A stretch of DNA of 64,000 nucleotides. Origin: an uncultured Bacilli bacterium (GTDB lineage Bacteria; Bacillota_I; Bacilli_A; RF39; UBA660). Shown piece after piece: positions 3,574 through 64,000 of this stretch. The position numbers were made by a program, and so were the translations under genes. The stretch lies in the NCBI GenBank assembly GCA_963931065.1, contig OZ006970.1:934903-998902 (forward strand), written 5' to 3'. Within the stretch, counting starts at the first letter, position 1. Each line of letters opens with the position of its first letter. Under the pieces are notes generated by a model, which saw nothing but the letters and a program-made list of their open reading frames with translations, made no database searches and was not told the DNA's origin.

Positions 3574-5080
3574 AATAATAAAGTTTTTTTATGTTTTTTT
3601 TGCTATTATCTTTTTATATTTGCTTATAAATATTCCATTTAGAGAAATATCAACTCTTTATGATATTAATTCATTAATCTTTGTACCAATAAGTATAATA
3701 ATAATCTTTATTTGGTATTTTATATATAAAGTAGTTAATAAGAAATTTAATAAACTTACAAATAAAAAGAAAATTATTTTGATATGTTCTACATTTATTT
3801 TTATTATAATTATAGAAATTTTAATTATTCTTTTTTTAGATGTTCCTTTAGGGTGGGATTTTGAAGTTGTATATCAACAAGCGAAAAGTTATGTTTTAAA
3901 CCATGCACATTTAAATAGTGGTGGTGTACCACATTATTTTCAATATTTTCCAAATAATATTCCAATTTTTATTGTGTTAGTTATTGTTTTTAAATTTTTT
4001 CAAATATTTGGTATGAATGACTTTTTATTAGTTGGTGAAATATTTAATGCTATTTTGATTTTGTTGACTATTATTTTTACTTATTTATTTATAAAAAAAA
4101 GTTATGGAGAAGCAAAAGCATATTTTTCATTGTTAATATCTTTGTTTTTTATTCCACTATTCTTATATATTCCAGTATTTTATTCTGATACATTTTCAAT
4201 ATTATTCGTTCCATTAATCCTTTATACATCTGCATTTTTTAATTCTTCTAATAAAAAATATAGAATTATTTCATATTTGTGTTTTGGAATATTTTCTTAC
4301 ATAGGGTGTAAAATGAAAATGACTGTAATTTTTATTCCTTTGGCCATTATCTTTGCTCAAATGTTGAAAGCTAATTATAAATGTTTTTTGATTTTATTAT
4401 CATCATTAGTTCTTTCTTTCTTAGTTTTGGGTAGTTTTTATAATTATTTTGTTCTTGAAAAAGATATTTTTTATGCAAAATATGATAATTATGGAGCAAT
4501 CCCTTATACTCATTGGGTAATGATGGGAATTGAGGATGGAGAGGTTAAAGATCATAATTCTTATGGCGGATATAATGGTGATGATTATGAGAAAACAGAA
4601 AGTTTTAAAACTGGCAGAGATAGTATGAAATATCATATAAAAGAAATAAAGAGAAGAATTAATAAATGGGGTTTTATTGGTTATGCTAATTATCTTACAA
4701 ATAAAGCTGTTAATGCATGGGGAGACGGAAATTATTATGCTGCTATAAAACTGAATTGGCAAAACAAATATAATACAAATAATTTTCAAAAAATTATTTC
4801 TGGAAGTGATAATAATCATTATATGATATATTTTAATTCTAGTGTTTCATTTGCGTTTTTGATTTTATTAGTAATGTCATTTTTATGGGCATTAATTAAA
4901 AAAGATAATAATTTGTTAGTGATTCAATTATCCATTTCTATGATTTTTGTATTTTTACTATTATGGGAAAATCGTTCTAGATATTTATATAATTATATTC
5001 CAATTTTTAATATTGTAATTGTCTATTATATAGATAAGCTTAAGTTATTAGGATTAAGATGGAAGAAATATCGAGGGTAG
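3566..5080 (+). CDS. Polytopic membrane protein, candidate GT-C fold (ArnT/PMT/GtrC-like) glycosyltransferase
   Basis: Multi-TM N-terminal half followed by a hydrophilic loop (DNYGAIPYTHWVMMGIEDGE...); located just upstream of a GtrB-like gene. Confidence 0.45.
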   Translation: MSRIIKFFYVFFAIIFLYLLINIPFREISTLYDINSLIFVPISIIIIFIWYFIYKVVNKKFNKLTNKKKIILICSTFIFIIIIEILIILFLDVPLGWDFEVVYQQAKSYVLNHAHLNSGGVPHYFQYFPNNIPIFIVLVIVFKFFQIFGMNDFLLVGEIFNAILILLTIIFTYLFIKKSYGEAKAYFSLLISLFFIPLFLYIPVFYSDTFSILFVPLILYTSAFFNSSNKKYRIISYLCFGIFSYIGCKMKMTVIFIPLAIIFAQMLKANYKCFLILLSSLVLSFLVLGSFYNYFVLEKDIFYAKYDNYGAIPYTHWVMMGIEDGEVKDHNSYGGYNGDDYEKTESFKTGRDSMKYHIKEIKRRINKWGFIGYANYLTNKAVNAWGDGNYYAAIKLNWQNKYNTNNFQKIISGSDNNHYMIYFNSSVSFAFLILLVMSFLWALIKKDNNLLVIQLSISMIFVFLLLWENRSRYLYNYIPIFNIVIVYYIDKLKLLGLRWKKYRG

Positions 5081-5260: not shown

Positions 5261-6229
5261 ATGAAAAGAAAACAAGTTAGTCAAGATATTTTATATGTTG
5301 TAATACCATGTTACAATGAAGAAGAAGTTTTAGAAGAAACTACAAGGCAGTTAAAAGAGAAAATGAAGGATTTAATCACAACAAAGAAAATAAGCGATAA
5401 AAGTAGAGTTATGTATGTTAATGATGGCAGCAAGGATAAAACTTGGAATATCATTGAAAAAATTCATAGAAAAGAAAAACTATTTACTGGTATATCCTTA
5501 TCCAGAAATAGAGGACATCAAAATGCATTATTAGCAGGTTTAATGACTGCGAAAAATTATGCTGATGTAGTTATTAGTATGGATGCTGATTTACAGGATG
5601 ATATTAATGCTATGGATGAAATGTTAGATAAATATTATCAAGGTAATGATATTGTCTATGGAGTTAGAAGTTCCAGAAAAAAAGATACTTGGTTTAAAAG
5701 AACTACTGCTGAAGGTTTCTATAAATTTATGAATAAAATGGGAGTAGATGTTGTTTATAATCATGCTGATTATAGGTTGACTAGTAAAAGGGTATTAGAC
5801 TATTTAGAAAATTACAAGGAGGTAAATTTATTCTTGCGTGGTATTTTTCCTTTAATTGGTTTTTCATCAGACATTGTTTACTATGAGAGAAACGAAAGAT
5901 TTGCAGGTGAGAGTAAATATCCATTAAAAAAGATGCTTTCTTTTGCATGGGATGGTATTACTTCTTTTTCAATTCGTCCAATAAAACTTGTTTTAAATTT
6001 AGGAATCTTTATTTTTGCTATTAGTATATTGATTTTAATATATTGTTTAATAGTTAAATTATTTGGTTATACAGTTGATGGTTGGACATTTATTATGTGT
6101 TCTATCTGGATTGTAGCAGGGCTTGAAATGTTATCTTTAGGAATAATAGGAGAATATGTTGGTAAAATTTACAGTGAGACCAAAGCAAGACCTAGGTATA
6201 TAATATCTAGAAATCTAAATGAAGAGTAA
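5261..6229 (+). CDS. Polyprenyl-phosphate sugar transferase (GtrB/CsbB-like GT2 with C-terminal TM pair)
   Basis: 'YVVIPCYNEEEVL', 'VNDGSKDKT', 'MDADLQDD' motifs and two C-terminal TM helices typical of bactoprenol glucosyltransferases; RBS GAGGAAG upstream of ATG 5261. Confidence 0.8.
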   Translation: MKRKQVSQDILYVVIPCYNEEEVLEETTRQLKEKMKDLITTKKISDKSRVMYVNDGSKDKTWNIIEKIHRKEKLFTGISLSRNRGHQNALLAGLMTAKNYADVVISMDADLQDDINAMDEMLDKYYQGNDIVYGVRSSRKKDTWFKRTTAEGFYKFMNKMGVDVVYNHADYRLTSKRVLDYLENYKEVNLFLRGIFPLIGFSSDIVYYERNERFAGESKYPLKKMLSFAWDGITSFSIRPIKLVLNLGIFIFAISILILIYCLIVKLFGYTVDGWTFIMCSIWIVAGLEMLSLGIIGEYVGKIYSETKARPRYIISRNLNEE

Positions 6230-32738: not shown

Positions 32739-32988
32739 ACAAAATATAAATTAATAGCAAAATAAATGTATAATTGATATATTTATTTGCTATATTTTTA
32801 ACTAAAGGAAATGGTAAAAATATAATATATGTTTTAAAATGAATGATTAAATGTGAAAGTTAATCAATTTATTATTTTACCAACTATGGTATAGTATAAA
32901 TGTTAATGGCGATGGTGTGTCTTCGGATCCCATCTATGCAAGTTAGATGCGTCTAGTTTGCTTTTTATTTTTAGTTTTTATGACAAAA

Positions 32989-33032
32989 GTGGTCGAAAAG
33001 TGGTCGAAAAGTGGTCGAAAGGTTGCTGAAAA
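32989..33032 (+). repeat. Tandem 11-bp repeats GTGGTCGAAAA ×3 plus GTTGCTGAAAA; related GTTGCCGAAAA ×2 at 31577..31599
   Basis: Direct visual tandem repeats on both sides of the Abi gene. Confidence 0.7.
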
Positions 33033-33160
33033 GAATTGATAATTTTAAATATAAAGAAAAAAGCATAAGAGATACTATACTTTTTATGTAATAATTTGTA
33101 ATTATTTATTTTAAAGCTTCATTTCATAAAAATGATTATGGTAATGCCTAATAGTATATT

Positions 33161-35681: not shown

Positions 35682-35783
35682 TTATATTTCTTAAAAATAT
35701 GTATATACTATTATTGTATACTAGTTGACATTTTTAGAAAAAAATAGTATATTTATATCACAGATGAGATTATTCATCTTGGA

Positions 35784-35880
35784 AATGTTTTTCGCTTCTG
35801 GATGGTGCGATTAATAAATGATTCCAGTCGACAATGTTTTTCGCTTCCAGGTGGTGCGACTAATAAATGATCCTGGTTGA
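35784..35880 (+). ncRNA. Two tandem 49-nt repeats each forming a 5-bp stem/20-nt loop hairpin (candidate type III antitoxin-like RNA)
   Basis: Units AATGTTTTTCGCTT-[CTGGA]-TGGTGCGATTAATAAATGAT-[TCCAG]-TCGAC and ...[CCAGG]-TGGTGCGACTAATAAATGAT-[CCTGG]...; upstream sigma-70-like promoter TTGACA(35725)-17-TATATT; downstream terminator. Confidence 0.55.
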
Positions 35881-35886
35881 AAATGT

Positions 35887-35921
35887 TAAAAACTTCATCA
35901 TTTATGGTGAAGTTTTTGTTT
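35887..35921 (+). terminator. Rho-independent terminator between repeat array and toxN-like ORF
   Basis: ACTTCATC...GGTGAAGT hairpin followed by TTTTTGTTTT. Confidence 0.6.
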
Positions 35922-36019: not shown

Positions 36020-36487
36020 ATGAAAGTTAAAACTGGATATTTATATCATATTAAAGATGAATACTTTGATGTTGTAAATGATGATAATTTGATGCAAAAT
36101 CATGAAAGAGGAAAGAAACGACCAACATATTTTACAATTAAAGATAAAAATATACTATGGTTTATTCCTATAAGTTCTAAAGTAGAAAAATATCAGAAAA
36201 TAATTGATAAGAAAATAAAAAAATATGGTTTTTGTAATACAATAATGATAAGAAAAATTGCTAGTAGTAATGCTGCTATTTTATTGCAAAATGCTTTTCC
36301 TACCATAGAAAAATATATTGACCATGTGCATACTGTTGATGGAGTACCTTTAAAAGTTCCTACTGACTTACAAGCAGAAATCAAAAGCATGTTTAAAAAT
36401 ATGTTAGGTTTGAAAAAGAGAGGAACTAATTTATTCTTTGCTGATATAGATAGTTTAGTGGAAAAAATGTTAAAAGAAAATAAATAG
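36020..36487 (+). CDS. ToxN/AbiQ-family (type III toxin-antitoxin) endoribonuclease-like protein
   Basis: 155 aa from ATG 36020 (RBS GGGGTG). 'YLYHIKDEYFDVVND...KKRPTYFTI...WFIPISSK' parallels the ToxN/AbiQ N-terminal 'FY.I...Y..YL..FD..V...RPYIGIV...YFAPLSSPK'. Track start 35867 rejected because it overlaps the terminator and promoter. Confidence 0.55.
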   Translation: MKVKTGYLYHIKDEYFDVVNDDNLMQNHERGKKRPTYFTIKDKNILWFIPISSKVEKYQKIIDKKIKKYGFCNTIMIRKIASSNAAILLQNAFPTIEKYIDHVHTVDGVPLKVPTDLQAEIKSMFKNMLGLKKRGTNLFFADIDSLVEKMLKENK

Positions 36488-45780: not shown

Positions 45781-46909
45781 TTTAATGGAAAATTTTGATA
45801 AAGCTAAAGAGAATTTTTTAAGCAAAGAAAAAAACTTAAGTAAATATGCTACTAGAAGTAGTGATGCTATTAGGTTTAAAGAGGAAAATGAAGATATTAG
45901 ACCTCCATTTTTTCATGATATAGATAGAATAATACATTCACTTTCTTATACAAGATATTTAAATAAGACACAAGTTTATACACTAAATTCTAATGATCAT
46001 GTCAGTAGAAGAATTACTCACGTTCAATTAGTTAGTAAAATTGCTAGAACTATTGGTAGGGCTTTAAACTTAAATGAAGACTTAATAGAGGCCATTGCCT
46101 TAGGTCATGATATTGGGCATACTCCTTTAGGACATACAGGAGAAGCGATATTAAATAGACTATCACTTAAAGAACTAGGAGAATATTTCGCTCATAATAT
46201 CCAGGGAGTAAGATATTATATGAATGTAGCAACTGATGGGAAAGGACTTAATTTAACACTACAAACATTGGATGGTATTATGACTCATAATGGAGAGATG
46301 TTAAGCCCTATATATGAACCTATGGCTAAAGATAAAGAAGAATTCTTAAGAGAATATAATGAAAGTTATAAAGACTTAAAGAAATCTAAAACTTATCGTC
46401 CTATGACTTTAGAAGGTTGTGTAGTTAGAATTAGTGATATTATAGGATATATTGGTAGAGATATTGAAGATGCTATTATGATAGATAGATTTAAAAGAAG
46501 TGATATACCTAAAGAAATAAGAGAAGTACTTGGTGATAACAATAGAGATATTGTTAATACTATTGTCTTAGACATAATTAACGAAAGTATAGATAAATCT
46601 TATATTAAGATGAGTGATAAAGTCTATAATGCCTTATTTGCTCTTAAGAAATTTAATAATGATAATATTTATAGTAAGTCTATGACTAAAGAAGAATTAG
46701 ATTATTATGAAATAGGTATTAACAAACTATATCATATCTATTTAGAAGATATTAAATCTAATAATAAAGAGAGTATTATTTATAAAATATTTTTAAATCA
46801 TCAAGATAAATCATATATAGAATCTACTAATATAAAAAGACAAGTAATAGACTTTATCGCTGGTATGACAGATGACTTTTTAATAAGAGAGATTAAGAAA
46901 TATGAGTAG
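45764..46909 (+). CDS. HD-domain dNTP triphosphohydrolase (dGTPase-like)
   Basis: 'HVQLVSKIARTIG...ALGHDIGHTPLGHTGE' HD motif and dGTPase-type length. Confidence 0.8.
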   Translation: MSGRSDLMENFDKAKENFLSKEKNLSKYATRSSDAIRFKEENEDIRPPFFHDIDRIIHSLSYTRYLNKTQVYTLNSNDHVSRRITHVQLVSKIARTIGRALNLNEDLIEAIALGHDIGHTPLGHTGEAILNRLSLKELGEYFAHNIQGVRYYMNVATDGKGLNLTLQTLDGIMTHNGEMLSPIYEPMAKDKEEFLREYNESYKDLKKSKTYRPMTLEGCVVRISDIIGYIGRDIEDAIMIDRFKRSDIPKEIREVLGDNNRDIVNTIVLDIINESIDKSYIKMSDKVYNALFALKKFNNDNIYSKSMTKEELDYYEIGINKLYHIYLEDIKSNNKESIIYKIFLNHQDKSYIESTNIKRQVIDFIAGMTDDFLIREIKKYE

Positions 46910-47672
46910 AGTGTTAGAGTGTAGTACTTTAGAAAAAGAAATATTAACTAAAGTAAAAAGAGATGTTAAAAATAAGAAAGTTACTCTTGCAATCATCAGT
47001 TTTAATGACTCTAAATATTGTGAGTTACTAATAGATAAATGTGACGAATTAGATGTATATTTTAGATGTTACAAACTATATAATTCTAATACATCAAAAG
47101 TTACATCTTTAATAGATGAATTAAATAAAGATAGTGAAATAACTGGTATTTTATTAGTAGAGCCTGTACCTAAAAATATTGATAAATACTCTTGTTATAA
47201 GCGAATAGATATAAATAAAGATATAGATGGAGTTAATCCACTTAATCAGTATTATTTATCTATAAATAAACCTAATATAATTAATTCAACTGTTCTTGCA
47301 GTTAAAAGATTATTAGAATTTTATAATATCTCTTTAGGTGGTAAAAATGCCACTATCATTGGAAGAAGTTACAATATATCTAAACCTCTTACAAACTACT
47401 TAATAAATAAAGATGCAACTGTTACAATGTGTCACTCTAAGACTAAAGATTTAGTTAGTATATTAAAAAATAGTGATATTATAATAAGTGTAACAGGTAT
47501 TAATAATTTATTTAAAAGTAGTGATTTAAAAGATGATACTATTGTTATAGATATAGGACTAGGAGATGTTTTAATAAATAGTGATAATATTAGTTATACA
47601 CCTAAAACTAAAGGAATAGGGCCTTTATCTATCGCTTGTCTTTTAGAAAATTTAGTTAAAAGTATTTACTAA
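46902..47672 (+). CDS. FolD-like methylenetetrahydrofolate dehydrogenase/cyclohydrolase family protein (divergent)
   Basis: C-terminal NAD(P) domain 'GKNATIIGRSYNISKPL...ATVTMCHSKTKDL...ISVTG'. Confidence 0.55.
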   Translation: MSRVLECSTLEKEILTKVKRDVKNKKVTLAIISFNDSKYCELLIDKCDELDVYFRCYKLYNSNTSKVTSLIDELNKDSEITGILLVEPVPKNIDKYSCYKRIDINKDIDGVNPLNQYYLSINKPNIINSTVLAVKRLLEFYNISLGGKNATIIGRSYNISKPLTNYLINKDATVTMCHSKTKDLVSILKNSDIIISVTGINNLFKSSDLKDDTIVIDIGLGDVLINSDNISYTPKTKGIGPLSIACLLENLVKSIY

Positions 47673-47737
47673 AATAAATTATTATGTTAAAGTAATGATG
47701 TATTAAATGAAAGAAATTTCATATAATATAAATGAAA

Positions 47738-47828
47738 ATGTTCTCGCTCCCGGATGGTGCGAGTAATAAATTATTCCGGTCGACAATGTTTCTCGCTCCC
47801 GGATGGTGCGAGTAATAAATTATTCCGG
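47738..47828 (+). ncRNA. Second copy (2 units) of the 49-nt hairpin repeat family, orphan array
   Basis: AATGTTCTCGCTC-[CCGGA]-TGGTGCGAGTAATAAATTAT-[TCCGG]-TCGAC ×2; conserved loop and compensatory stem changes relative to locus 35784. Confidence 0.55.
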
Positions 47829-47841
47829 ACGAAAATATTTA

Positions 47842-47875
47842 AGAAAGTTCTATCAATTGATAGAATTTTCTTTTT
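47842..47875 (+). terminator. Rho-independent terminator after the repeat array
   Basis: GAAAGTTCTATCAA/TTGATAGAATTTTC hairpin followed by TTTTT. Confidence 0.6.
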
Positions 47876-47969
47876 AAAATATTGACTTTTATAGTTATTA
47901 AAATATAGTTACTACTTGTGAAAAGTAAAAATAAAACTTATAATGAATATAGAAAGAAGAGTGAATTTA

Positions 47970-48341
47970 ATGAAAATTTATGTATGTAAAAAATGTGGAA
48001 ATGTTATATTAAAATTAGAAGATAAAAGTGAAACTTTAGTATGTTGTGGCGATAAAATGGAACTTGTTGATGCTAATACTACTGAAGCTGCTACAGAAAA
48101 ACATTTACCAGTATATGAGATTAAAGATGGAATGATTAACATTAAAGTAGGAGAAGTAGAACATCCTATGATGGATGAACATTATATTTCTTTTATAATT
48201 CTTGCAAGTGATAATAATTATATGATTAAAAAATTAAAAGTAAAAGATAGGCCTGAAGTAAGTTTTCCTTATAGTAGTGAATATAATAAAATATATGCAT
48301 ATTGTAATTTACATAGTCTATGGCTTACAGAAATTAAATAA
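47970..48341 (+). CDS. dfx: Desulfoferrodoxin (superoxide reductase)
   Basis: N-terminal 'CKKCGN...CCGDKM' desulforedoxin site and C-terminal 'HPMMDEHYI' centre II. Confidence 0.8.
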   Translation: MKIYVCKKCGNVILKLEDKSETLVCCGDKMELVDANTTEAATEKHLPVYEIKDGMINIKVGEVEHPMMDEHYISFIILASDNNYMIKKLKVKDRPEVSFPYSSEYNKIYAYCNLHSLWLTEIK

Positions 48342-49138: not shown

Positions 49139-49375
49139 TTCAAAAGTAATTTGTGAAAATTGCTCATTATTATTACTTTAATCTCTAAATAATAAAGAAA
49201 TTTAACTCCATATCTGGAATTAGACATTTAAGTAAACTTTTTAAGGTTATATTCTTTTAAGAATATCATCGTGAATAGTAAGATTTATTTCTCATAAAAA
49301 CTGACAAAATATGAAATATAAATGTCAGTTTTTTTCTTTAAGTTTATGTTAAACTTCACTAAAGGGGAGTTTAAT

Positions 49376-51214
49376 ATGGTAGTACAATCTATATATTTAA
49401 ATAAAGATAATGTTTCTAAAGAATCTTGGCTAAATTTAATAAATTATGTATGTAAATATAATGGCTATTTTAGAAATTTTAAAATAGTTGTAGAGATATT
49501 TAATAATAAAATAAAATATTATTTAGTTACTAAATATAAAGTTGCACCAACAATAAATTCTATAGATGATTTTTTAATAAAAGAAGAAGATATCAATATA
49601 GTAATAGATTATGAAAAAGCAAAACCTTTAGTTTTAGATATAGATAAAAATGCTGTAGAACTTTTTGATATTAGTAAATTAAAACATAATAGGGAACTAA
49701 GATATATTATTATTAATGTAACACCTTTATTTAATAAAAGATTATTTAAGACTTATATGTTCTTTAATAATAATAATAATTATATTAGAAGAAGATTTTT
49801 GATGGCTAGTCCTACTTATTTACTTAGTATTGATTTTAGTAATAATAAAAGATTTTCTTATGAAAAGAAAAATAAATATCTAAATTTAGAAAAAATATTA
49901 CCACTTTTAACAAATGATAATAAAGGAATATTTTGTGTAGATTCTTTTCCTTATTTAGGAAAAGAGATGTATTTAAATTATAAAGATTATGACTTTTTTA
50001 AACATTCTTTAATAATAGGAAGTAGTGGTAGTGGTAAATCTAAACTTATAAGCCTTTTAGTAAAGAATATAACACTAAATACTGATGATTATAAAGTTGT
50101 TATAATAGATCCCCATGCTTCAATAGAAAAAGATATAGGAGGTTTAAGTAAGACAAGAGTTATTGACTTTTTAAATGATAAAGTTGATTTATTTACATCA
50201 AATAGTACTAATATTGTAATAAAAAATGAATTAATGTTATCAGTATTTAAAAATTTAATGAAAGATGGGTATAATTTAAAACTAGAAAGAGTTTTACGCT
50301 ATACTATTTATTTATTATTAACTAAACAAGATTTTTCTTTTTCTAATATTAGAAAAGTTTTATTAGATTTAGAATATAGAAATAATTTAGTAAGAGAATT
50401 AACACCTTATTTAAATGATACAGTTATATCATTTTTCTTAACAGAATTTAATGATTTAAAGACTAATTATTATAATGAGAGTATTTCACCAATAATAAGT
50501 TTTATTGATGAAATGTTAGTATTTTCTACTTTTGATAAGTTTGATGAAAGTGTAATTGATGCAATTGATAAAAGTGATTTAACAATATTTTCATTAGATA
50601 GAAGTGCTTTAGGTGATAAGATTGTTAAAACTATCTCTTCTTTAGTAATGGAAGAAATATTAGAATCAGCGATAGAAGATAAATTAAATAAAAAATTACT
50701 TTTAGTTGTCGATGAAGTATCCTTACTTGAAAATCCTATTATGGAAAGACTTTTATCAGAATCTAGAAAGTTTGGTATTTCTCTAGTCCTTGCTGAACAG
50801 TATTTTGGACAAATTAGTAAAAAATTACAACAATCTATTTTCGCTAATGTTATAAATTATTATTCTTTTAGATTATCAAGAAGTGATGCTATTATTTTAA
50901 AAGATGTTTTAGAAGTTAAGTTTGCAAGAAATGTAGTTGATGATGATAAAATAAATTTATTTACAAACTTAAATAATAGAGAAGTAGTAGTAAGAGTTAG
51001 TAAAGATGAAAAAGTTTTACCAGTATTTAAAGCTAAGACTACTGACTTTGAAGCAGTCCCTTTACTTAGAGATAAAGTTAAGATATTTACTAAAATAAAA
51101 GATATATCAAATAATGTAAAGTTAAATTTATCTAATTATACAGATAAAAAATTAAAAGATATATTAGTAACTTTATCTAATAGTAGGAAAAGACATGGTG
51201 ATAAATATGAGTGA
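49376..51214 (+). CDS. HerA/FtsK-like P-loop ATPase (DUF87-type)
   Basis: Walker A 'GSSGSGKSK', Walker B 'LLVVDEVS'. ATG 49376 after AAAGGGGAG. Track start 49322 rejected because it lies inside the upstream terminator hairpin. Confidence 0.6.
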   Translation: MVVQSIYLNKDNVSKESWLNLINYVCKYNGYFRNFKIVVEIFNNKIKYYLVTKYKVAPTINSIDDFLIKEEDINIVIDYEKAKPLVLDIDKNAVELFDISKLKHNRELRYIIINVTPLFNKRLFKTYMFFNNNNNYIRRRFLMASPTYLLSIDFSNNKRFSYEKKNKYLNLEKILPLLTNDNKGIFCVDSFPYLGKEMYLNYKDYDFFKHSLIIGSSGSGKSKLISLLVKNITLNTDDYKVVIIDPHASIEKDIGGLSKTRVIDFLNDKVDLFTSNSTNIVIKNELMLSVFKNLMKDGYNLKLERVLRYTIYLLLTKQDFSFSNIRKVLLDLEYRNNLVRELTPYLNDTVISFFLTEFNDLKTNYYNESISPIISFIDEMLVFSTFDKFDESVIDAIDKSDLTIFSLDRSALGDKIVKTISSLVMEEILESAIEDKLNKKLLLVVDEVSLLENPIMERLLSESRKFGISLVLAEQYFGQISKKLQQSIFANVINYYSFRLSRSDAIILKDVLEVKFARNVVDDDKINLFTNLNNREVVVRVSKDEKVLPVFKAKTTDFEAVPLLRDKVKIFTKIKDISNNVKLNLSNYTDKKLKDILVTLSNSRKRHGDKYE

Positions 51215-51905
51215 TAAAGATGCTTTAATAATAATAGATAAGATTTTTAAGGCTGTGTTTTTAGTTAATAATACTAATACCTTAGAAGAAATCTTAAATA
51301 AGTATGCTTTTGATATAAAACTTCCTCGTAAAGTATATGATTATATAACTAACGAAGAAACTTATACAGATTTTGATAATGCTAAAGTTTTTATTACTAA
51401 AGATAATATGGAAAAGTTAGATAGTACAAAAGGTTTTATGTTAGAAAAAAAAGATTTTAAAAGTTTAGATGAAATTATAATGACATGGGAAAATATTAAT
51501 TCTATAACTACTAATAGATGTTATAACTCTACTTATGTATCTAAAAGTGATACTATTTATGACTCTAGTTATGTTTATAATTCTTCTAATTGTTCTAATT
51601 CAAAAAACATAGTGTTTTGTGATGGTTGCACTAAAAGTGAATACTTACTAGCATCACAAAGAAGTGGTAGTTGTACTTTTTCAATTAGAGTAGATGATTC
51701 TAGTAATTGTAGTAACTCTTATAGTGTTATTTGTTCTAATAAGATTAGTAATTCTATATTTATTCAAGATTGTTTTAATTTAGATGAGTGTATTTTTTGT
51801 TCTCATATTGCTAATAAAAAGTATTGTATTTGTAATATGCAATTTGAAAAAGATGAATATTTTACTATAAAAAACATAATAGTAAAGTGGATTGTTAATT
51901 CCTAG
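51207..51905 (+). CDS. Cys-rich hypothetical protein coupled to the HerA-like ATPase
   Basis: Repeated 'NCSNS' and CxxC-like clusters (CDGC, CIFCSH, CICN); 8-nt overlap with the ATPase gene. Confidence 0.4.
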   Translation: MSDKDALIIIDKIFKAVFLVNNTNTLEEILNKYAFDIKLPRKVYDYITNEETYTDFDNAKVFITKDNMEKLDSTKGFMLEKKDFKSLDEIIMTWENINSITTNRCYNSTYVSKSDTIYDSSYVYNSSNCSNSKNIVFCDGCTKSEYLLASQRSGSCTFSIRVDDSSNCSNSYSVICSNKISNSIFIQDCFNLDECIFCSHIANKKYCICNMQFEKDEYFTIKNIIVKWIVNS

Positions 51906-52048
51906 TATCAAACTATCATATTAAGCATATTATATTTAGAATACAAATTGTAAAAAAAGCTTGAATTTTTTAAAAAAATATGCTAAAATTTTACTCGTAT
52001 TATGGTTAGGGACTCCTAACCTATATTAATATTTTTGAGGTGATTATA

Positions 52049-60797: not shown

Positions 60798-61919
60798 ATG
60801 AAAATATATAAAGCTTATAAATATAGATTATATCCAACAGAAGAACAAAAGATATTAATACATAAAACCTTTGGATGTAGTCGTTTTGTATATAACCATT
60901 ATTTAGATTATGAGAAGAAAAACGGTGTAAAAAAAGCATATGATTTAATTAAAGATTTAAAAGAACTAGAAAAAGAATATGAATATCTTAAAGAAGTAGA
61001 TTCATGTGCTTTAAGATGTGCTGTATTTGATTTAGAAGATGCATTTAATAACTTCTATGCCAAAAGAAGTAACTACCCAAACTTTAAAAGTAAATTTGCA
61101 AGACAATCTTATAGAACTAACTGTATAAGAAGTACTTATAAAGGAAAAGAATATAGTAATATAGAGTTAAATCTATTAACAAGAAATATAAAATTACCTA
61201 AACTAGGAAAAGTAAAGATAAGAGGATATAGAAATAAAAAGACTATAGATGGAAGAATAATTAATGCCACTATTTCAAAAGAAACAACTAATAAATATTA
61301 TGTAAGTGTGTTAGTAGAAGAAGAACTATTAGTAGAAAAAGTAATACCTGCAAGTATTGTAGGAATAGATTTAGGTATAAAAGATTTAGTAATAACTAGT
61401 GATGGTATTAAATATGAAAATGATAAAATACTAATGAAATATGAAAAGAGATTAAAGAGATTACAAAGAAAATTATCAAGACAAGTTAAAGGAAGTAATA
61501 ATTATTTAAAGACAAAGGAGAAAATAGCAAGAGTACATACTAAAATAAAGAATTATAGAAAACATTATTTAAACAAGATTGCAAATGAAATAGTAGATGA
61601 ACATGATATAATAGTAACAGAAGACCTTAAAGTAAAAGATATGTTTAAAGGAAAAGTAAAAGCATTTAATAAAACTCTATCAGATGCAAGCTTTAGTAAA
61701 TTATGTTCTCTAATAGAATGGAAGAGCAAGTTGAAGGGAAAGTTTTATTATAAGATAAATACATATTATCCTAGTAGTCAGATATGCTCGTGTTGTGGTT
61801 ATAGGAATAGAAGTTTAAAAGATTTAAGTATAAGAGAATATGATTGTCCATGCTGTGGCTCACATAATGATAGAGATATAAATGCTAGTTTAAACATATT
61901 ATTTGGTGCGACTGGGTAG
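60798..61919 (+). CDS. tnpB: IS200/IS605-family TnpB (OrfB) RNA-guided endonuclease, solo (no tnpA), 3′ end interrupted by a group II intron
   Basis: 'MKIYKAYKYRLYPTEEQ' N-terminus, RuvC-like motifs, C-terminal zinc finger 'CSCCGY...CPCCG', 'DRDINASLNIL'. Confidence 0.85.
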   Translation: MKIYKAYKYRLYPTEEQKILIHKTFGCSRFVYNHYLDYEKKNGVKKAYDLIKDLKELEKEYEYLKEVDSCALRCAVFDLEDAFNNFYAKRSNYPNFKSKFARQSYRTNCIRSTYKGKEYSNIELNLLTRNIKLPKLGKVKIRGYRNKKTIDGRIINATISKETTNKYYVSVLVEEELLVEKVIPASIVGIDLGIKDLVITSDGIKYENDKILMKYEKRLKRLQRKLSRQVKGSNNYLKTKEKIARVHTKIKNYRKHYLNKIANEIVDEHDIIVTEDLKVKDMFKGKVKAFNKTLSDASFSKLCSLIEWKSKLKGKFYYKINTYYPSSQICSCCGYRNRSLKDLSIREYDCPCCGSHNDRDINASLNILFGATG

Positions 61920-63818
61920 GTCGTATAATTTAGCAGGTGGAAATCCTGCCTAGTAAGGTAAACCCACACCACTAGTAACGAGTCTTGGAGCGAAACTGGT
62001 AACAGTTAGTTTAAGCGTAGACAGTTAGGTACTAGGGTTAGTATTGAGCCTCGAAATATGTAAAATCAGAGTGCAGATGTAGTCGAATATGCAGAATGCA
62101 ATATTTAATATCGCGATATCGGGGATGTAGTATTAAAACTCTGCGGGGTCTAAGACCTAATCATGGTACACAATGATTATACGATGACCAGTGAGAACCT
62201 ATTTCTTCCTTTAAGTCCAAATGGCAATGAGTCTATGGTAAAGCAAGAGAGCGAAAGGTATGATATATACAAGTCCTAAAAAGACAAGATATATCAGAAG
62301 AGAAATAGGTAGTCAGATGAACTCATAGTACTGATGATACCATATCAATAAATATGGAGGAAGGAAGGGGTTCAATTAATATAGGTCTTGTTAGAAGAAA
62401 CATTATCGCTATACAAGGAGGGATTAAATAATGACAACTAAAATAGCAAGAATAAATCAGATAGCAAAAGAAAGACCTAAAGAGGTATTTACTTCTATTT
62501 ATCATTTAATAAACAAAGAACTACTAAGAGAATGCTTTGATGAATTAGATGGCAATAAAGCAACTGGGCTTGATAAAGTTACTAAAGATGAATATTTTCA
62601 TAATTTAGATGAAAACCTAGATAATTTAGTAGAAAAGCTAAAGAATAAAGCTTATAGACCAAGTCCAGCAAGAAGAGTAAATATACCTAAGGCAAATGGG
62701 AAACTAAGAAGTCTTGCAATTGCCAACTTTGAAGACAAGATAGTACAACTAGCAGTAAAGAAGCTTGTGGAAGCAATATACGAACCTAAGTTTACTAATA
62801 ATATGTTTGGTTTTAGACCAAATAGAGGTTGCCATGATGCTCTTAAATATCTAAACTATTGTATAGAAAAGCAACCTACAAACTATATACTAGATGCAGA
62901 TATTGAGGGTTTCTTTGATAACATTGACCATGATAAGTTAATGTTAGGTTTAGAAATGCATATTAAAGATAGAAATCTATTAAGATTAATTAAAAGGTTT
63001 CTGAAAGCAGGTATAATGGAAAACGGAACATATATAAAAGGAGAACTAGGTACACCACAAGGTTCAATATTAAGTCCAGTATTAGCCAATATCTATATGT
63101 ATTATGTACTTATGCTATGGTTTGAAAAAGAAATAAAACCTAAGTATAAAGGTTTTATTGAAATAATCAACTATGCAGATGACATGGTTGTATGTTTTCA
63201 AAATAAATCAACTGCCGAAGAAGTGTATAAACAAATGGAAGATAGGCTTAAAGAGTGTGGCTTAAAATTTGCAAAAGATAAAACTAGACTCATTGAATTT
63301 GGAAGATTTGCAAGTGAAAATAGGAAAAGAAAAGGTTTAGGTAAACCTGAAACATTTGACTTTCTAGGTTTTACTCACTACTGTAGTAAAAGCAGAGATA
63401 AGAAACACTTTAGAGTAAAACGTAAAACATCTAAGAAGAAGTATGCTAAGAAACTACAGGAGTACAATACTTGGGCTAAGAATAATAGAGGTAAAACATT
63501 AAAAGAAATAATGGAAACTACAAAAAGAAAACTACTAGGACATTATAATTACTTTGGTATAACCGATAATAGCCGGGCACTAGTGAAGTACACTTATGAG
63601 GTCATTAGGATTTTATTTAAATGGCTAAACAGAAGGAGTCAAAGGGAAAGTTATACATGGGAAGAATTCCGTCAGATGGTGAACACTTTCCAATTTCCTA
63701 AGCCTAAAATTAAGGTAAATATATATGCTATGTGATGAATTATATTACTAAAAGCCGTATGCGGAAAAGCCGCACGTACGGATTTGTGAGGGCTATATAG
63801 AGTAATCTATATTTCTAC
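61908..63818 (+). mobile_element. Bacterial group II intron (about 1.9 kb), En-less RT/maturase type
   Basis: 5′ GTGCGAC at 61908; domain IV ORF; domain V AAGCCGTATGCGGAAAAGCCGCACGTACGG at 63754–63787; domain VI-like hairpin ending ...TTCTAC about 63818. Confidence 0.7.
62431..63735 (+). CDS. Group II intron reverse transcriptase/maturase
   Basis: RT domains 0–7 ('ANGKLRSLAIANFEDKIVQ', 'ILDADIEGFFDNIDH', 'YADDMVV') and X/maturase domain; no HNH endonuclease domain. Confidence 0.9.
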   Translation: MTTKIARINQIAKERPKEVFTSIYHLINKELLRECFDELDGNKATGLDKVTKDEYFHNLDENLDNLVEKLKNKAYRPSPARRVNIPKANGKLRSLAIANFEDKIVQLAVKKLVEAIYEPKFTNNMFGFRPNRGCHDALKYLNYCIEKQPTNYILDADIEGFFDNIDHDKLMLGLEMHIKDRNLLRLIKRFLKAGIMENGTYIKGELGTPQGSILSPVLANIYMYYVLMLWFEKEIKPKYKGFIEIINYADDMVVCFQNKSTAEEVYKQMEDRLKECGLKFAKDKTRLIEFGRFASENRKRKGLGKPETFDFLGFTHYCSKSRDKKHFRVKRKTSKKKYAKKLQEYNTWAKNNRGKTLKEIMETTKRKLLGHYNYFGITDNSRALVKYTYEVIRILFKWLNRRSQRESYTWEEFRQMVNTFQFPKPKIKVNIYAM

Positions 63819-64000
63819 TCGATAAGGATTAAAGATACACTATAATTTGCAAAGCTTAGTTTAGATTATGTTTTAGATAAAATAACAATTAACTAATAAC
63901 AAATTAGTACGGTGGCGACCATCGGAATTTAAGCCTACGTGAGAATAAGGGTTACTTTATCTATGAAGTAGGAATCCTTGAAGGTAACGACAAGGTAAAA

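Follow-up and report, generated by a model that had tools for sequence, protein, structure and literature searches.

A toxin-less CptI array between folD and dfx in an uncultured gut Bacilli bacterium, very probably what remains of a CptIN type III toxin-antitoxin cassette after loss of the toxin gene

The DNA analysed here is a 64,000-nt stretch (hereafter, the window) from the genome, of about 1.5 Mb, of an uncultured Bacilli bacterium. As listed in Table 1, it contains two short arrays of a 49-nt tandem repeat. Array 1 is followed by a toxin gene, and array 2 is situated between a folD-like gene and the desulfoferrodoxin gene dfx. The gene next to array 1 is the sole CptN-like coding sequence of the window and lies approximately 11.3 kb upstream of array 2; no CptN-like coding sequence was found within 1.2 kb of array 2 itself, relaxed thresholds included. 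The window's own arrangement recurs in independent assemblies, including a 1.52-Mb contig. A previous reading of the same DNA, made from the sequence only, had placed array 2 between folD-like and dfx genes with no ToxN-like gene nearby, and both observations were correct; its description of the associated toxin as ToxN-like was not, as described below.

Table 1. Positions of the two repeat arrays and of the parts of the folD-dfx locus within the window
Feature	Position	Strand	Basis or remark
Array 1, a pair of CptI units differing in subtype from array 2, intact cptIN locus	35781-35882	+	Sequence, Tandem Repeats Finder, covariance model
cptN, encoding the 155-aa toxin that is cognate to array 1	36020-36487	+	NCBIfam NF047359; PDB 4RMO
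folD-like gene	46902-47672	+	Pfam PF00763 and PF02882; 5' of the cassette
Left copy of 12-nt direct repeat, AAAATTTAGTTA	47647-47658	+	Within the folD 3' end; flanks the inserted cassette
Cassette left end (AAAGTATTTACTAAAAT...) and putative cptI promoter	47659-47736	+	Homologous to the upstream region of loci L094, L128 and L023
CptI unit 1, 48 nt	47737-47784	+	Covariance-model match, 57.7 bits
Unit 1, S1	47743-47747 pairing with 47759-47763	+	Helices supported by covariation
Unit 1, S2	47750-47754 pairing with 47775-47779; A-rich L2, 47764-47774	+	
CptI unit 2, 49 nt	47785-47833	+	Covariance-model match, 76.5 bits
Unit 2, S1	47792-47796 pairing with 47808-47812	+	
Unit 2, S2	47799-47803 pairing with 47824-47828	+	
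Intrinsic terminator, 14-bp AT-rich hairpin followed by a T-run	47841-47876	+	Predicted fold; kept in L094, L128 and L131
Scar of the lost toxin segment	47877-47899	+	Three-way alignments with L094/L128 and with L131
Right-hand copy of the 12-nt repeat, AAAATATAGTTA	47900-47911	+	Native folD-dfx intergenic DNA restarts here
dfx, desulfoferrodoxin	47943-48341, likely start 47970	+	Pfam PF01880 and PF06397; occupies the former place of cptN

The core of the repeat, the 17-mer TGGTGCGANTAATAAAT, occurs exactly four times in the window, always on the + strand (35803, 35852, 47755 and 47804). When up to three mismatches were allowed, nine matches were obtained against 1.0 expected, a number reached by none of 100 shuffles. 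A covariance model made from 138 related units recovered these four units only, with scores of 57.7 to 76.5 bits, the next match reaching 13.8 bits (E=0.14), and Tandem Repeats Finder assigned a period of 49 and 2.2 copies to both arrays (35779-35887 and 47734-47840). These results agree with the four units, two loci and conserved loop core of the sequence-only reading, and with its two-unit arrays each followed by a terminator. The terminator hairpin of array 2 was missed by a simple terminator scan because it is AT-rich, and the 148-nt region predicted to be transcribed from array 2 gave a fold of -45.8 kcal/mol (z = -4.8). Upstream, the -10 box TATAAT of the putative cptI promoter occupies 47722-47727 and is overlapped by the palindrome ATGAAAgaaaTTTCAT (47707-47722); a consensus promoter scan did not call the cptI promoter of array 2, and its -35 box is weak. 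The palindrome over the -10 box (47707-47727) is also kept in four related loci (L094, L128, L071 and L023), and may be an operator for some regulator.

The product of the gene downstream of array 1 matched NCBIfam family NF047359 ("type III toxin-antitoxin system CptIN family toxin", an equivalog) with 161.6 bits against a cut-off of 90, over profile positions 1-150 of 150, and a PDB sequence search related it to crystallised CptN (4RMO) at E=8e-21. An assignment as a ToxN/AbiQ-type toxin was rejected: no Pfam family matched at E<=0.01 and no PADLOC model matched, and the CptIN family was the sole toxin-family NCBIfam match, the other three NCBIfam matches being weak and far under their cut-offs. 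The order at this locus is promoter, two repeats, terminator and toxin, with a full-length CptN at the canonical distance. Since array 1 and CptN show this canonical type III layout, the repeats can be identified as CptI antitoxin RNA. With the CptIN system of Eubacterium rectale and the family surveyed by Blower et al., they have in common the homologous toxin, the order repeats-terminator-toxin (array 1) and a copy number of approximately 2. The published cptIN repeats are of 40-48 nt in 1.9-3.4 copies (Blower et al. 2012, PMC3401426), and the 49-nt unit of the window is 1 nt beyond that range.

In E. rectale, the CptI RNA is a 45-nt H-type pseudoknot in which the two stems are S1 and S2, L1 is very short, and L2 is long and A-rich (PMC4627078); its sequence, as recovered from the primers of that paper, is AAGUUUACCACUGACCGAUAUGUGGUAUAUAAAUGGUCGGGUUGA. 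Read 5' to 3', the window unit is composed of a tail (AAUGUUU), S1 (CUCGC), L1 (UC), S2 (CCGGA), a junction (UGGU), S1' (GCGAG), L2 (UAAUAAAUUAU), S2' (UCCGG) and a 3' tail (UCGAC), with UAAUAAAUKAU as the L2 consensus. By inspection, this order of parts matches that of the E. rectale CptI, including the single-stranded A/U-rich tails. The primary sequences, however, are unrelated, the architecture alone being alike, and in the window units a conserved UGGU of 4 nt separates the 5' strand of S2 from the 3' strand of S1. Together, S1 (CTCGC/GCGAG) and S2 form an H-type pseudoknot with an A-rich L2. Consequently, the simple hairpin of a 5-bp stem and a 20-nt loop proposed earlier is incorrect: the "stem" is S2, and the "loop" holds the 3' strand of S1 together with L2. 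The stem sequences themselves had been read correctly (CTGGA/TCCAG, CCAGG/CCTGG and CCGGA/TCCGG, the last twice), and they remain complementary despite their differences, with three covarying positions. The ends of the units in array 2 were placed by likeness to the E. rectale cleavage after ...UUGA and are putative: the window junction GA(C/A)AAUGUUU resembles the E. rectale cleavage site UUGA^AAGUUU.

To evaluate the fold, units were collected by a pattern scan with one genome per species, which returned at least 119 loci, mostly in metagenome-assembled genomes of uncultured gut Bacilli or "Tenericutes"; 138 distinct units were taken from the loci listed. With both helices arranged as a pseudoknot, 94.4% of the cells pair, versus 32-58% when the partners are slid by 1-3 columns; for the two crossing helices, 94.4% and 92.5% of the cells are paired versus 31-58% in the slid controls. 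Changes on both sides were found at all five pairs of S2 (243 cells among the 138 units listed), which none of 500 shuffles reached. The inner S1 pairs are invariant in this set because the scan pattern fixed TCGC/GCGA. A search free of S1 recovered the variants CCGC/GCGG, TCAC/GTGA, CCGT/ACGG and CCAC/GTGG, and S1 covaries at four of five pairs in a 32-unit set that includes S1 variants; since this set was assembled by hand and enriched for them, it shows that compensation exists rather than how frequent it is. The structured RNA family that had been suspected from the four units is therefore borne out, with covariation in both helices, and these repeats constitute a previously undescribed 49-nt CptI subfamily of small-genome gut Bacilli.

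The same alignments bear on whether the repeats might act as DNA, as an IS end, a REP element or a cruciform, or as a cis-acting leader or attenuator of dfx, which begins approximately 100-130 nt 3' of the array 2 terminator and could be reached by read-through. Stem G-U pairs are common (for example, 18 at the outer S2 pair among the 138 units listed), and because these would be A-C mismatches on the other strand, they point to an RNA read from the + strand and make a DNA cruciform unlikely. Of the two forms of selection previously deduced from the covariation, that on RNA structure is thus upheld and that on a DNA cruciform is not. Neither inverted terminal repeats nor an adjoining transposase gene was noted at array 2. 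Comparison with Rfam, which had been suggested as a way of recognizing fragments of a known element, gave no match at gathering score at either array, and permissive searching of 47650-47950 gave chance-level matches only (E>=3). A role for the repeats as a DNA element or as a dfx leader is, in our view, highly improbable, and the comparison of orthologous sites described below also speaks against the latter.

The four units of the window belong to two subtypes. Units of the array 2 type have C in L1, U in L2 and a closing C-G pair in S1, and those of the array 1 type have U in L1 and G in L2. In at least 19 complete loci, array 2-type units precede a CptN that is 55-69% identical to the resident CptN, and array 1-type units precede toxins with a median identity of 85% to it, among the arrays listed. 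In 41 of 43 cases among the loci listed, the nearest-neighbour toxin carries the same unit subtype. Single-linkage clustering of the toxins at 75% identity merged both subtypes, and the reference-identity and nearest-neighbour tests were used instead. Over the cores of approximately 39 nt that were compared, both array 2 units are identical to the toxin-linked units of locus L031, the toxin of which is 66% identical to the resident CptN. The limits of specificity are not readable from sequence alone, because toxins served by array 2-type units share only ~65% identity (L031 versus L094), and toxins as much as 82% identical can have different unit subtypes, among the loci listed.

Arrays 1 and 2 have the same period, the same copy number and a common 17-mer core, as would be expected if array 2 were a recent duplicate of array 1 serving as a spare resident antitoxin. 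Nevertheless, the promoter and terminator sequences of array 2 are unlike those of array 1, the subtype-diagnostic bases differ between the arrays and track different toxin groups, and array 2 has its own cassette ends and toxin-promoter scar, while at the orthologous site in L131 the array is followed by a cptN pseudogene of its own. A recent duplication can hardly be credited against this evidence. Array 2 is of a separate subtype, and its promoter, terminator and cassette history are its own; it is not a copy of array 1, contrary to its first description as a second copy of the same repeat.

This cassette history can be followed at related loci. Positions 47659-47880 of the window align with the promoter, array and terminator of two complete cptIN loci, L094 and L128. 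The similarity stops right 3' of the terminator, where those loci run via an internal promoter (ATTGACGAACAT...) into cptN. L094 and L128 were rejected as orthologous sites, since their flanks are a different gene and dnaG and the homology is that of the cassette only; L071 (U32-HD-greA-single unit) was rejected as an orthologue because its gene order differs. A folD protein-guided scan of metagenome contigs identified two true folD-dfx orthologues, L131 and L132, whose dfx products begin MKIYVCKKCG, in line with a dfx start at 47970 in the window. In L132 (folD 77% identical), folD passes directly into the dfx promoter without any insert, and the covariance model found no unit at this site. 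The empty site reads GAAAATGTAGTTAC once, and the window and L131 hold the insert between two copies. The insertion rewrote the C-terminus of FolD, which is ...ENVVTSCEKLK in L132 versus ...ENLVKSIY in the window, where the folD stop codon (47670-47672) and last codons come from the cassette. That L132 has the same dfx gene and promoter region without an array, and that identical arrays at other loci precede cptN rather than dfx, are the observations that argue against a dfx leader.

In L131 (folD 78% identical), the left and right junctions are as in the window. Its promoter is partly deleted, its single unit has a stem mismatch and an L2 substitution, its terminator is kept, and its cptN is a pseudogene spread over three reading frames with internal deletions. 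In the window, both cassette ends are kept, and the ~0.5-0.6 kb that held cptN are missing. At the scar, ATTGAC (47881-47886), which matches the -35 box of the internal cptN promoter in complete loci, is fused to the cassette right end TTTTATAGTTATT; in a promoter scan, the fused sequence scores as promoter-like (TTGACT-16-TATAGT). The cassette left end (AAAGTATTTACTAAAA...) recurs in L094, L128 and L023 at another genomic site, and this recurrence, together with the 12-nt direct repeat, suggests that cptIN may be a discrete insertable cassette. In a fuzzy search for the left-end motif, chance matches were very numerous, the DNA being AT-rich, and the credible ones were those in the window, L131, L094, L128 and L023 only; no flanking direct repeat was found for the cassettes at the dnaG site (L094 and L128).

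Overall, these results make it very probable that array 2 is the CptI antitoxin half of a CptIN type III cassette from which the toxin gene was deleted. We class it as a derived, toxin-less member of CptI because arrays with identical cores precede cptN in L031, L094 and L128, and because L131 keeps a cptN pseudogene. The mechanism of CptIN, including the cutting of CptI from the repeat transcript by CptN, has been demonstrated experimentally in E. rectale (Rao et al. 2015, PMC4627078). In an intact cassette of the present type, a constitutive promoter would transcribe the tandem 49-nt repeats, and a leaky terminator would restrict read-through into cptN. The CptN endoribonuclease would then cut the repeat transcript to single units, each of which would fold as an H-type pseudoknot, bind CptN and keep it inactive. 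At the folD-dfx site, such a cassette entered the 3' end of folD, and a later internal deletion of ~0.5-0.6 kb took out cptN, leaving the promoter, two perfect units, the terminator and both ends. Array 2 probably still gives an RNA of ~140 nt with two pseudoknots that stops at the terminator, with no cognate toxin at the locus. Of the functions offered in the sequence-only reading, that of an orphan antitoxin-like array therefore stands; a decoy or a broader sRNA family need not be invoked, since a cptIN cassette with a deleted toxin suffices.

Loci in which the toxin decays while the array persists have been described before. Truncated-toxin cptIN loci of Bryantella, Lachnospiraceae and others encode toxins of 45-101 aa together with full repeats and terminators (PMC3401426). 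Array 2 resembles them in that array and terminator persist, but its toxin open reading frame is wholly gone, so a toxin-based search would never find this locus. We classified 133 arrays among the matches listed according to what follows them; as the sample is pattern-based and drawn from metagenome-assembled genomes, where contigs may be broken or wrongly joined at repeats, the counts are indicative only. Among those listed, a full-length cptN was found 3' of 59 arrays and a partial cptN 3' of 16 (~12 truly truncated or frameshifted, the others cut by a contig end), 39 of the ~114 assessable arrays had no cptN within 1.2 kb, and 14 were too near a contig end to judge. At least two good units were present in 26% of the toxin-less arrays versus 80% of the complete loci, and the inner part of the S2 stem was fully paired in 90% of toxin-less units versus 98% of those in complete loci (Fisher p=0.03), among the arrays listed. 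Toxin-less arrays thus look degraded as a class, and many of those listed still have a recognisable promoter and terminator. No recurrent protein family that could represent an alternative toxin was found 3' of the toxin-less arrays listed: the downstream genes are unrelated, which argues against a hidden alternative toxin, and only two pairs of open reading frames cluster, one of which (L106/L121) is a single orthologous locus.

Array 2 is most likely a neutral, decaying relic. A toxin-antitoxin pair is expected to decay safely only when the toxin goes before the antitoxin, and L131 and the ~12 truncated-toxin loci among those listed show intermediate stages of it. As a counterpoint, array 2 is flawless: its -10 box, both units and its terminator are intact, as expected of a maintained functional module. 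Moreover, the 64-kb window is a small part of the ~1.5-Mb genome, and a matching cptN may be encoded outside it. It could have been retained as a stand-alone antitoxin, which would either buffer the resident CptN 11 kb away or guard against incoming cptIN of the same subtype on mobile elements or phages. Both arrays have the inter-unit junction GTCGACAATGTTT, and their subtypes differ at ~3 non-compensated positions only, and thus, judging from these sequences, the resident CptN could plausibly cut or bind array 2 RNA. Near-identical units of the array 2 type serve toxins as distant from each other (the L031 and L094 pair mentioned above) as from the resident toxin, and toxin-less arrays are frequent (at least 39). 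Against such retention are the degraded state of the toxin-less arrays listed, the state of the orthologous array in L131, where decay has left a single imperfect unit behind a damaged promoter, and the existence of an empty folD-dfx site in L132. Published CptI RNAs gave no cross-protection against non-cognate CptN, but those toxins are only 35-44% identical, so this is not decisive here. On balance, we consider a retained stand-alone antitoxin unlikely, and a present-day lack of function of the relic the better expectation.

The pseudo-ToxI of phage PhiTE is a type III antitoxin mimic that allows the phage to escape ToxIN and acts in trans (PMC5086642). Like it, array 2 consists of toxin-less type III antitoxin-like repeats; pseudo-ToxI, however, is phage-borne, of the ToxI family and of demonstrated function, whereas array 2 is chromosomal, of the CptI family and derived from a deletion of its own toxin. 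When viral contigs were scanned, the unit pattern matched in two of them only. A closer analogue of pseudo-ToxI is found in a predicted phage contig (L010, IMGVR_UViG_3300031521_000065), where two CptI-like units of the GTCGC/GCGAC type (2690-2801, - strand; the better one at 60.8 bits) lie within a tRNA cluster, just upstream of 14 same-strand tRNA genes, and no CptN is encoded within 1.2 kb of them; by analogy, they may serve the phage as an antitoxin mimic. Orphan type II antitoxins and anti-addiction modules represent the same concept, an antitoxin without a toxin that possibly guards against incoming homologues, but the antitoxin of array 2 is an RNA that would need the RNase of the toxin for its processing, and its function is putative. 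A limited literature search gave no report of orphan type III antitoxin arrays or of chromosomal toxin-less CptI arrays.

Other loci of this lineage carry further arrangements, and tandem or nested cptI/cptIN modules seem common in it. In L094 (+ coordinates ~5880-6080, - strand reading), the promoter region is present a second time and drives a two-unit repeat of another sequence, GGTTT(T)ACCATTCC...AAAAAATGG, which has a period of ~38 nt and its own terminator; the next cassette is reached with no open reading frame in between. This appears to be a toxin-less array as well, but one belonging to another antitoxin type, and L094 has three modules in tandem upstream of dnaG. In L077 (- strand, ~4700-4930), a truncated cptIN locus is followed directly by a toxin-less array of four units, whose S1 helices all differ and are all compensated (CCGT/ACGG, TCGC/GCGA, CCGC/GCGG and CCAC/GTGG), and in L031 (4770-4822 and 5016-5068, - strand) more CptI units, of 56.7-58.2 bits, lie downstream of cptN. 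The orthologous locus of array 1 in L121 (2878-4076) and L106, which comprises impB, a 133-aa gene, the array, a membrane protein and SOD with flanking proteins 88-96% identical, has an intact two-unit array, and the place of cptN is taken by a gene with a promoter of its own, whose 331-aa product bears an HEAGH metalloprotease-like motif.

Elsewhere in the window, 49322-51905, just downstream of dfx-AraC and followed by greA at 52040, has the lowest GC (~22%). Its products are a HerA/DUF87 ATPase of 630 aa that has a TrwB-like domain, and a partner of 236 aa without a Pfam match; the stretch could represent a variable island or a defence pair. In the region 60798-63823, an IS605 OrfB/TnpB-like gene (60798-61919) is followed on its 3' side by a group II intron (Rfam matches at 61940-62158 and 63750-63823) with an internal 434-aa open reading frame. 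Perfect 11-nt tandem repeats (AAAAGTGGTCG, 3.3 copies) are located at 32985-33033, ~770 nt upstream of an impB-like gene.

[quoted passage not shown] The analysis also provides more than 130 natural variants of the CptI pseudoknot with both helices covarying, which could seed an Rfam-type model, since no Rfam family matched. Toxin-based surveys overlook a sizeable antitoxin-only population, which amounts to approximately one-third of the arrays sampled among those listed. It is conceivable, although in our estimate doubtful, that the toxin-less cptI arrays are maintained in small-genome gut Bacilli as a class of stand-alone RNA antitoxins, neutralising incoming cptIN of the same subtype on mobile elements or phages or tuning the resident CptN, and that cptIN is an insertable, discrete cassette whose ends are conserved and whose insertion duplicates ~12 bp of the target. 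If solitary arrays do neutralise toxins in trans, this would affect the spread of cptIN cassettes and phages in gut Bacilli.
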